This document shows, piece by piece, positions 1,598-3,083 of a stretch of DNA of 6,942 nt (within the stretch, counting starts at the first letter, position 1; every line of letters starts with the position of its first letter). This DNA comes from a virus. Its lineage: Duplodnaviria > Heunggongvirae > Uroviricota > Caudoviricetes. The notes beneath the pieces are model-generated. The model saw nothing but the letters and a program-made list of their open reading frames with translations, was not told where the DNA came from and made no database searches. The stretch lies in the IMG/VR virus record IMGVR_UViG_2585427748_000004; one strand, given 5' to 3'. Made by a program: the position numbers and the translations under genes.

Positions 1598-1857
1598 GGT
1601 TCTTTCCACCATCTGAAAAATGATTCTTTAAAATACCTGACATGTAATACAGAAAAAACACAAAACCATACCTTAAATAAAAACCTCATCATCAAGCAGA
1701 TATGCATGGATAAACTACAAGACGAGATATAAACCACCCTGCATTTAAATAAACAATAAACAACATCAGAAAAATAATTCTGCTCTATGGTTTACAATCA
1801 AAAATATCATTTATACTTTTCAGAACATCACCAGCAAGGCATAAACAAGGAAACTAA

Positions 1858-2193
1858 ATGAAGTGGATTGTGATTGATACAGTTATCCAGCCATCATGCG
1901 GAATATCTTTTTCAGTCATATGGAGTAAAATAAAATTAATAATCTGGTATCAATCGGATGCTTTCTTACCTCCTGAAAGTATATTTACACTGACTCACAC
2001 AGGCATCATGCTCAATAACAAAGTGCTACCTGTAACCATTTACAACGTAGTACCATTCAATAAAACATTCTGGAATTTAATCAAAAACAGCCAGGAATGC
2101 CCTACAAATACAGATAACGTATTGAATGAATGCTTTAATAACCGTTGCACTCTGCAAATATGTCCTTATGGGCTAAAACAACAAAGTCCATAA
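1858..2193 (+). CDS. Hypothetical 111-aa protein in AT-rich cargo DNA, opposite strand to late transcription
   Basis: ATG at 1858 preceded by AAGGAA 5 nt upstream; -35-like TTTACA (1789-1794) and -10-like TATACT further upstream. The frame stays open for 111 codons in roughly one-third-GC DNA, where stops are frequent. Six AUA Ile codons. No family recognised. Confidence 0.35.
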
Positions 2194-2211
2194 GGAGTTT
2201 ACTCACATCTG

Positions 2212-2249
2212 ACAAAATCAATATAAACAGCCCCTCCGGAGAGGGGCTG
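2212..2249 (-). terminator. Candidate intrinsic terminator at the 3' end of repeat unit A
   Basis: Perfect 9-bp stem CAGCCCCTC/GAGGGGCTG with 4-nt loop (2228-2249), followed on the minus strand by TTTATATTGATTTTGT. Confidence 0.4.
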
Positions 2250-2437
2250 GAGAGTGGCGCTATGTGCCATTGCATGGTGCCGGGTGCCTCCCGGTGAATT
2301 CAGTACCAGCACCTGAATCCGCGATTATCCCATATACCTACTCGCTGATTACCCCTCCGCACAGGGGGATTCACCATGCGAAATTTTTTAACAAACTTCC
2401 CGCCGGCCAGACAATAATCGCCAGCCTGAATTATGAG
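2228..2437. repeat. Structured repeat unit A (~210 bp)
   Basis: Shares with unit B the hairpin GCCCCTCCGGAGAGGGGC, GCATGGTGCC(N)GG..CCTCCCGGT.AATTCAG, GGGGGATTCACCATGCGA and TTTTAACAAA...CAGACAAT.ATC blocks. Internal stems are kept by different sequences in the two copies. Confidence 0.6.
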
Positions 2438-2472
2438 CAACGTGGCATTTTACGGGAAAACTGTTTTCTGCA

Positions 2473-2497
2473 GTAAAAAGGCCCGCCGGAGCGAGCC
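2473..2497 (-). terminator. Candidate intrinsic terminator at the 3' end of the diverged middle unit
   Basis: Stem GGCCCGC/GCGAGCC (one G-U pair) with the same CGGA/TCCG loop as the other two hairpins, followed on the minus strand by TTTTTAC. Confidence 0.4.
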
Positions 2498-2691
2498 TGG
2501 AAGGATAGCGGTCATGTGATGCCGGTTTCCCGGTAACTCAGCATCGGTATCTGAGTCAACGTTTTCTCTACTGGGTCATTTCCGATACGTTCCGCCTTCC
2601 GGCAGACTTTCATCACGTCAGAAAATATAGCACCCTGAGTAACAGGACAGTACTCAGAATTCAGGAAACTGTGACACATCCTGCACAGAAA
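2480..2691. repeat. Diverged third copy of the structured repeat (middle unit)
   Basis: Starts with the same loop-type hairpin and retains a TGCCGG..TTCCCGGTAACTCAG block resembling TGCCGGGTGCCTCCCGGTGAATTCAG of unit A; the rest has diverged. Aligned by eye only. Confidence 0.35.
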
Positions 2692-2711
2692 AGCCCCTCC
2701 GGAGAGGGGCT
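2684..2711 (-). terminator. Candidate intrinsic terminator at the 3' end of repeat unit B
   Basis: Perfect 8-bp stem AGCCCCTC/GAGGGGCT with loop CGGA (2692-2711), followed on the minus strand by TTTTCTGTG. Confidence 0.4.
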
Positions 2712-2906
2712 GAAGTATAGCCTAATTTCTGTCTGTCGCATGGTGCCAGGGGCCTCCCGGTAAATTCAGCCTGTCTACTGAATTTGCATGTTCTCTGGAT
2801 CATACACTTTGCCAGATGCCCCGCCGCTGAGGGGGATTCACCATGCGATGTAATTTTTAACAAATTCTCCGGCAGCCAGACAATCATCAAGCTGTGGAAT
2901 TGTGAG
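2692..2906. repeat. Structured repeat unit B (~215 bp)
   Basis: Direct repeat of unit A. Stem pairs GCATGGTG/CACCATGC and AATTCAG/CTGAAT are kept while loops and some stem bases differ. Confidence 0.6.
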
Positions 2907-3083
2907 GTATTTAAAAATTTCAACGTGTAACTGATACCCTGCTAATCGCCTGATGCTTTCTTTTTCAGCAACGGGAAAGCAACAACCACACACCCGCCAC
3001 CAAAACACCATCAGACAGCACCGACATTATCCGGCTGCTGAAGTCCACCATCACCACCAGAAACAACAGGAGTGCAACCACAG

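Follow-up and report, generated by a model that had tools for sequence, protein, structure and literature searches.

What does a lambdoid prophage carry at the position that stx takes in Shiga-toxin-converting phages, if no toxin is encoded there? This question is raised by a stretch of 6,942 nucleotides (the window; IMG/VR record IMGVR_UViG_2585427748_000004), in which positions 1598-3083 (the slot) lie between a truncated tRNA-Arg(TCT) gene and nanS-p. An earlier reading made from the sequence alone had described the slot as the equivalent of the stx cargo site in a late region of the Stx-phage type, which would hold an uncharacterized, possibly RNA-based function expressed through Q antitermination upon prophage induction. 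The analysis presented here indicates that the window very probably belongs to a non-Stx lambdoid E. coli prophage, in which a PR' 'moron' site carries three sRNA genes, iraL and gene remnants.

The slot and its flanking genes

The late strand is the minus strand of the window. In late-strand order the following elements were found:

from ~6688: IS629-like element, which breaks up the DUF968 gene
after the interrupted DUF968 gene and before Q: rusA
4976-5797, minus strand: Q antiterminator gene (Pfam Antiterm PF03589, 167.8 bits), followed by the PR' region
4893 to 4878, minus strand: tR'-like terminator (terminator scan)
between the tR'-like terminator and the DNA methyltransferase gene: small ORF with its own terminator
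3352-4401, minus strand: DNA methyltransferase gene
3227-3302, minus strand: tRNA(CAT) (ARAGORN, Rfam tRNA; tRNA-Ile of the ileZ type in RefSeq)
3141-3217, minus strand: tRNA-Arg(TCG) (ARAGORN, Rfam tRNA, RefSeq annotation)
3126 to 3085, minus strand: 5' fragment of tRNA-Arg(TCT) (argO), 42 nt, 41 of them identical to Sakai argO2
1598-3083: the slot
1 to 1597, minus strand: nanS-p (sialate O-acetylesterase), 5' 532 codons (Pfam DUF1737, SASA and DUF6645)

The gene order of a Stx-phage-type late region, i.e., Q, PR'/tR', the ileZ-argN-argO tRNAs and nanS-p, is present as had been claimed, with argO reduced to 42 nt. The borders given in the sequence-only reading are exact within two bases (nanS-p start at 1597, end of the tRNA fragment at 3085). 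The argO fragment is cut after the anticodon arm and its homology to Sakai argO2 ends at 3085, while tRNA-Arg(TCT) is intact in CFT073, VR50 and Sp5. The fragment delimits the slot on the right and marks a recombination junction. The left border is nanS-p, which continues beyond the left end of the window and which is labelled 'SASA family carbohydrate esterase' by RefSeq in a 99.9% identical locus (L003). The PR'-tR' leader showed no StxS homology to Sp5, and the Q type differs.

No similarity to stx2AB was found, supporting the earlier statement that a toxin gene is absent. The Stx2a phage used for comparison (L004) aligns only over the tRNA genes, a single sRNA unit and nanS-p, but not over stx2AB, and the slot does not show the layout of Stx-converting phages, in which stxA and stxB separate the STnc100 gene from the tRNAs. 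It was also correctly seen that the slot holds no long late-strand ORF: the longest one comprises 89 aa and has no family match in Pfam or NCBIfam. Two strand-skewed tracts are present, one at 1600-1850 (GC 28-33%, GC skew to -0.53, AT skew to +0.46) and one at 2950-3100, which corresponds to a DUF3927 coding region in opposite-strand reading. The content of the slot, again in late-strand order, is as follows:

2965-3081, minus strand: DUF3927 ('TciB') mini-ORF, 38 codons (Pfam PF13064, 42.5 bits)
2683-2876, minus strand: unit A, STnc100-family gene (Rfam RF02076, 138 bits, E 3e-31)
2472-2647, minus strand: unit B, divergent STnc100/PasD-like paralogue (RF02076, 30 bits, E 0.0012)
2219-2407, minus strand: unit C, STnc100-family gene, homologue of EcOnc27/sRNA103 in position and sequence (RF02076, 132.5 bits, E 7e-30)
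1858-2193, plus strand: iraL, 111 aa, RssB anti-adaptor, running against the late operon and converging with unit C
1599 to 1857, plus strand: iraL upstream region with promoter and 5' UTR, AT-rich and strand-skewed

The earlier inventory of the slot thus holds for the three hairpin-punctuated repeat units and for the AT-rich opposite-strand ORF, and it missed the DUF3927 ORF of 38 codons. This mini-ORF passes the PF13064 gathering score of 25 bits and carries the existing labels 'DUF3927 family protein' and 'TciB', but it covers profile positions 11-39 of 53 and is not full-length. It starts with GTG 3 nt from the tRNA junction, with no obvious ribosome-binding site. The homologues upstream of PasD1 and PasD2 in E2348/69 are ORFs of 159 bp, and unlike the DUF3927/'TciB' ORFs for small membrane proteins in lambdoid late regions the copy in the window was shortened where it meets the tRNA fragment and retains 38 codons. 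The mini-ORF is probably an N-terminally truncated remnant, which may be translated. As judged from the alignments, argO lost its 3' half and the DUF3927 ORF its start at the junction 3084/3085.

The opposite-strand gene iraL

The ORF at 1858-2193 lies inside an island of 28-39% GC. Its product is identical to CFT073 IraL in 111 of 111 residues, and both share the RefSeq protein WP_000871291.1. It matches the NCBIfam IraM model NF007393 over residues 1-110 with 162 bits (cut-off: 121), as well as the IraM structure PDB 8twd, and it is 62% identical to K-12 IraM. By its sequence the ORF is therefore assigned as iraL, with RssB binding and sigma-S stabilization known from the identical CFT073 protein. 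RefSeq labels the ORF as IraM, although the product is the functionally distinct IraL.

Conservation includes the upstream region: the segment 1740-2200, containing promoter and iraL, shows 99.1% nucleotide identity to CFT073, and the promoter-plus-ORF segment was found in 1446 of 5426 complete genomes. [quoted passage not shown] For CFT073 IraL, RssB binding, function and log-phase expression were demonstrated (PMC4045071), and iraL has its own sigma-70 promoter with a mapped transcription start site (TSS) that is active in log-phase lysogens. Moreover, iraL mRNA of CFT073 becomes more abundant when the culture is shifted to 37°C, and a strain lacking Fur contains more IraL, both seen in experiments without deliberate prophage induction. 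The view that everything in the slot would be expressed through Q upon induction is thus not supported for iraL, which is encoded on the opposite strand and has a sigma-70 promoter of its own with a mapped TSS.

Related systems are K-12 IraM, the gene of which adjoins e14, and RssC of Salmonella, which is grouped with IraL and IraM. IraM of K-12 was reported as being induced by Mg2+ starvation. Unlike IraL, it contacts both domains of RssB (PMC4045071). The K-12 iraM locus was considered as a remnant of the same slot; the coding region alone aligns (71%), and no shared context was seen around it.

Three STnc100-type sRNA units on the late strand

The window was scanned with all Rfam families. 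Units A and C exceed the gathering score of STnc100 (RF02076, 47 bits) and match the model in full from position 1 to 206. Unit B stays below the gathering score and is classed as a divergent relative and not as a member. A and C are ~68% identical to each other and 68-74% identical to the copy of the Stx2a phage, and unit B is ~50% identical to A or to C. On the basis of these comparisons, A and C are regarded as canonical STnc100-type sRNA genes and B as a divergent relative.

The three repeat units noted earlier are punctuated by a family of 27-nt hairpins at 2226, 2476 and 2689, and all three copies are intrinsic-terminator-like sites on the minus strand. The terminator scan places them as follows:

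2711 to 2692, minus strand: terminator of unit A
2498 to 2479, minus strand: terminator of unit B
2249 to 2228, minus strand: terminator of unit C

In the region as a whole nine terminator-like sites were found, compared with 2.1 +/- 1.4 in shuffled sequences. All three units are oriented along the late strand between PR' cargo and nanS-p and end with a Rho-independent terminator. The predicted RNAs would be ~150-165 nt long with 3' ends at the three terminators (A: ~2846 to 2685; C: ~2379 to 2220; B: 5' end at ~2617), the 5' ends being inferred from the alignment with the RIL-seq coordinates of PasD2. The chimera coordinates of PasD2 start at the G of GCATGG (PMC8550237). Candidate promoters are TTGTCT-18 nt-TAAAAA with a preceding TG for units A and C and the extended -10 element TGcTATATT for unit B; these are weak consensus matches, proposed on the basis of the alignment with PasD and of conservation, and a generic sigma-70 promoter scan called no promoter for unit A, B or C. 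The minimum free energy (MFE) folds of units A and C give the closing helix of STnc100, for unit A formed by the pair GCAUGGUG/CACCAUGC. The MFE z-scores of the isolated units, calculated on sequences without the 3' half of the terminator, are unremarkable (-1.3, -1.3 and -0.1) and say little about structure.

Several members of this family were studied in other strains. In EHEC, EcOnc27/sRNA103 was confirmed by Northern blot and Hfq-CRAC (PMC7873438). PasD of EPEC is abundant and was detected by Northern blot and by RIL-seq on Hfq (PMC8550237), while its read counts in an hfq mutant showed no significant difference (PMC8550237, supplementary table S2). In EDL933 eleven STnc100 copies have RNA-seq reads, one of them verified by Northern blot (PMC5331693). 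A kinship of PasD and STnc100 was proposed in a preprint (bioRxiv 10.64898/2026.05.13.724894). Leads to targets of STnc100-type sRNAs are overexpression effects on fimZ and espA and an in silico match to stxB. By analogy with these family members, the units would be active in this host and would yield stable Hfq-bound RNAs. The expectation that the sRNAs depend on Q is at odds with the detection of PasD and of the EDL933 copies in uninduced cultures.

Conservation of the middle unit

Among 5426 complete genomes, 673 contain unit B, which occurs as two sequence variants, that of the window and that of VR50; further variants were seen neither in the E. coli genomes nor in the phage collection. 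The VR50 homologue scores 30.1 bits against RF02076. In the pairwise alignment of the two variants the -10 element is unchanged while the upstream flank has diverged. Within the first hairpin pairing is kept, with one double change from U-A to C-G and two single changes compatible with wobble pairing, and the terminator is kept despite a 4-nt indel. This pattern is a suggestive hint of function that is based on two sequences. In 24 of 25 sampled records no feature is annotated over the element, and the residual novelty of the locus lies in this unannotated middle unit and in the tandem array.

Relation to known prophages and origin of the slot

The slot corresponds to the moron site described by Tree et al. 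(2014; PMC4104026), situated between Q/PR'/tRNAs and nanS-p, at which convergent sRNA pairs were reported for eight Sakai prophages (PMC4104026). In Sakai Sp5 an STnc100 gene (208 bits) starts 75 nt after stx2B and is followed by convergent AsxR and then by nanS-p. As in Sp5, a late-strand STnc100-type sRNA gene immediately precedes a convergent cargo gene on the opposite strand; unlike in Sp5, a moron CDS like stx is absent, the sRNA gene of the late strand occurs in three tandem copies, and the convergent partner is the protein gene iraL and not an anti-sRNA of 51-60 nt. Such anti-sRNAs, expected as short convergent sRNAs with the conserved 3' 42 nt adjoining the STnc100 terminator, were searched for: AsxR (RF02703) and AgvB (RF02702) gave no Rfam hit in the window at E<=1, and their conserved terminator motif is absent from it with up to three mismatches allowed. 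Their place is taken by iraL.

At the corresponding position, and in the same layout, the Stx2a phage and CFT073 each carry one STnc100 copy (186 and 132 bits, respectively). Units A and C share with STnc100/EcOnc27/sRNA103 the closing helix, the internal hairpins and the terminator. With CFT073 the window shares the local module of nanS-p 5' end, iraL and STnc100, including the conserved promoter and 5' UTR, the alignment extending over 1378-2436; however, nanS-p is intact here and a fragment in CFT073. In VR50 the same three-unit array follows directly after three intact tRNAs, and both iraL and DUF3927 are absent. In E2348/69 a DUF3927 ORF is followed by PasD2 and the esterase gene, and PasD1 is located before the holin gene, also after DUF3927. 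The position of the slot units behind a DUF3927 ORF is thus like that of PasD, and DUF3927 just upstream of an STnc100/PasD gene is found in E2348/69 as well as in CFT073. PasD1 and PasD2 score 38-41 bits against RF02076.

The homology to prophages that lack iraL (VR50, Sp5) ends exactly at the nanS-p ATG and at the terminator of unit C; therefore, the AT-rich iraL island of 630 bp replaces ~230 bp, in which other prophages have the short sRNA of the convergent pair and the leader of nanS-p. Several E. coli chromosomes carry the slot with 100% identity, and 1012 of 5426 complete genomes cover at least 80% of it; window positions 1-6687 are 99.9-100% identical to intact prophages. Furthermore, 331 phage records match part of the slot at 95-99%, most of them Stx-converting by organism name; among the matches listed, those to Stx phages cover only parts of 2223-2437, i.e., of unit C. 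The slot had been taken for a place of uncharacterized function, but over its full length annotated records of phages and chromosomes match it at 99-100%, which largely removes this claim.

Proposed model and alternative explanations

In the model proposed here three tandem late-strand genes would give rise to structured sRNAs of ~150-165 nt, each gene being equipped with a promoter-like element and a terminator of its own. To judge from other family members, these sRNAs would be made in the lysogen, bind Hfq and base-pair in trans. The gene iraL would be transcribed from its own sigma-70 promoter (TSS at ~1825) and IraL would inhibit RssB; the gene takes the place of the short convergent anti-sRNA (AsxR/AgvB) of other prophages. 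The truncated DUF3927 mini-ORF and the half tRNA-Arg would be the trace of the recombination junction that created the variant. Upon induction, the three terminators would not stop Q-modified polymerase, which would generate antisense transcripts over iraL and proceed into nanS-p and the lysis genes. Expression from own promoters in the lysogen is most likely the main mode, with Q read-through as an added mode. The identities of families and proteins, the anatomy and the distribution are direct results of this analysis, while IraL function and TSS, as well as Hfq binding and expression of EcOnc27, PasD and the EDL933 copies of STnc100, come from studies by others of identical or homologous sequences. 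We infer an effect of late transcription on iraL as well as the promoters and 5' ends of the three units and their activity and targets in this host.

Four alternatives have to be weighed against this model. That the units, or at least unit B, are decaying duplicates, the hairpins of which form a triple terminator barrier and not trans-acting regulators, appears unlikely. In the lysogen, such a barrier would shield nanS-p and the lysis cassette against read-through out of the methyltransferase/tRNA region, and it would agree with three serial intrinsic terminators located immediately before nanS-p and the lysis genes, with the score of only 30 bits for unit B and with the weak z-scores, the latter calculated without the terminator 3' half. 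However, for units A and C the match extends beyond the terminator to all 206 positions of the model, the variants of unit B differ in the upstream flank but retain the extended -10 element and pairing in the internal hairpin, and PasD scores similarly low and yet is a validated, Hfq-associated sRNA. Moreover, the roles as barrier and as regulators are compatible with each other. Even less probable is the function originally proposed, uncharacterized, possibly RNA-based and dependent on Q antitermination at induction. Downstream of PR'/tR', all three units point in the direction of the late operon, as does the DUF3927 ORF, and the unit terminators would not stop a Q-modified polymerase, but family members occur as discrete sRNAs in uninduced cultures, each unit has its own promoter-like element and terminator, and iraL, on the opposite strand, has a mapped sigma-70 TSS. 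Most of the content is indeed RNA-based, as had been surmised, but it is not uncharacterized, STnc100 being contained in Rfam and IraL being identical to a studied protein. An uncharacterized Q-dependent function is thus unsupported because all slot components fall into described families, iraL is characterized and the architecture of the site is published.

It is very improbable that the units encode small proteins. ORFs of 55-89 aa are present and annotated in phage records, and GenBank/RefSeq contain 'hypothetical protein' CDSs at 2264-2476 (plus strand), 2512-2679 (minus strand) and 2654-2923 (minus strand). Against this, two ORFs tested, overlapping units A and C, gave no match in Pfam or NCBIfam, the CDS at unit C is flagged by RefSeq as an incomplete pseudogene, and strand and frame of the ORFs differ among the paralogous units. 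The conservation of the units is explained by the STnc100 RNA family, as seen in the covariance-model match. Finally, a degraded stx locus with toxin-gene remnants carries next to no probability: the position equals that of stx2AB in Sp5 and in the Stx2a phage, but no nucleotide similarity to the stx2AB segment of the latter was found and other elements account for the whole interval.

Implications

As a summary, the contents of the slot are already known, comprising a catalogued sRNA family, the characterized iraL and a published site. The slot is real but ordinary, because the sRNA family is catalogued and iraL was shown to stabilize RpoS. A tentative extension, which we regard as doubtful, sees the slot as a modular 'anti-regulator' cassette, in which the sRNA gene is triplicated, the convergent partner is interchangeable and iraL is switched off by convergent transcription. 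If so, unit B would represent a third subfamily, with the paralogues differing in their single-stranded regions, and the partner would be either an RNA sponge (AsxR against FnrS, AgvB against GcvB) or IraL against RssB. Silencing would originate from transcription of unit C or, at induction, from late transcription driven by Q. A shut-off of iraL by convergent or late transcription would, if true, couple RpoS stabilization to the lysogenic state.

The practical value is modest and concerns annotation: such sRNA genes are regularly missed, and spurious 'hypothetical protein' CDSs are placed there instead. A divergent sRNA paralogue is present in ~12% of complete E. coli genomes and is nearly always unannotated in the records sampled. 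For the biology of lambdoid phages, the toxin slot of the non-toxin prophage described here is given over to regulators of host physiology, namely an RpoS stabilizer and Hfq-type sRNAs, which agrees with the established view of the PR' moron site.

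Leader regions and junctions

The nanS-p leader of the window (1595-1640) is unlike those of the Sakai Stx2 prophage Sp5 and of the E. coli VR50 prophage as far as the ATG, and its ribosome-binding site is of the GGAAAG type compared to the GGGAGG type in Sp5 and VR50. The iraL island, i.e., the AT-rich block between the nanS-p ATG and the terminator of sRNA unit C, has therefore altered the translation-initiation region of nanS-p too.

At 3084-3085 the tRNA-Arg(TCT) gene is broken off after 42 nt and adjoined by the DUF3927 ORF with its GTG start, whereas at this junction the iraL-carrying prophage of UPEC strain CFT073 is ~565 bp longer and its tRNA is intact. 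The gene at 3227-3302 was identified as tRNA-Met(CAT) by ARAGORN and is annotated in RefSeq as tRNA-Ile (ileZ type, lysidine-modified); a Plastid-ycf2 model matched its antisense strand by chance.

Downstream of PR' and at the right end, the following features were found:

4893->4878, minus strand: tR'-like terminator
4555-4752: 66-codon ORF downstream of tR' (RefSeq hypothetical)
4565->4548: second terminator, after the 66-codon ORF
6681-6942: IS629/IS1203-like element (IS3 family) interrupting a DUF968 (ninG-like) gene

No similarity was found between the PR'-tR' leader and StxS of Sp5, and a family search with the 66-codon ORF gave no match. Rfam P26 matched weakly and below threshold at 4461-4525 (+; 24 bits). 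The IS element shares 94% identity with the Sakai copy, its orfA starts at 6741 (+), and homology with intact prophages ends at 6687.

Annotation of the sRNA units and the convergent element of VR50

CDSs labelled 'hypothetical protein', or pseudogenes, overlap the sRNA units in the annotation of GenBank phage records and RefSeq:

2264-2476, plus strand
2512-2679, minus strand
2654-2923, minus strand

An sRNA annotation over these units was absent from every record inspected. RefSeq names the window ORF IraM, although the allele is IraL.

The VR50 prophage locus, which carries the same three-unit array without iraL, contains:

3145-3233 of that locus, plus strand: element on the opposite strand that carries a strong terminator (GCCCGCG...CGCGGGCTTTTTTT)

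This element and the last STnc100 unit converge, and it occupies the position of the short anti-sRNAs AsxR and AgvB. It matched neither the AsxR nor the AgvB model at E<=0.05, its sole match being a weak one to OmrA-B (25 bits), and it may represent a further anti-sRNA variant.
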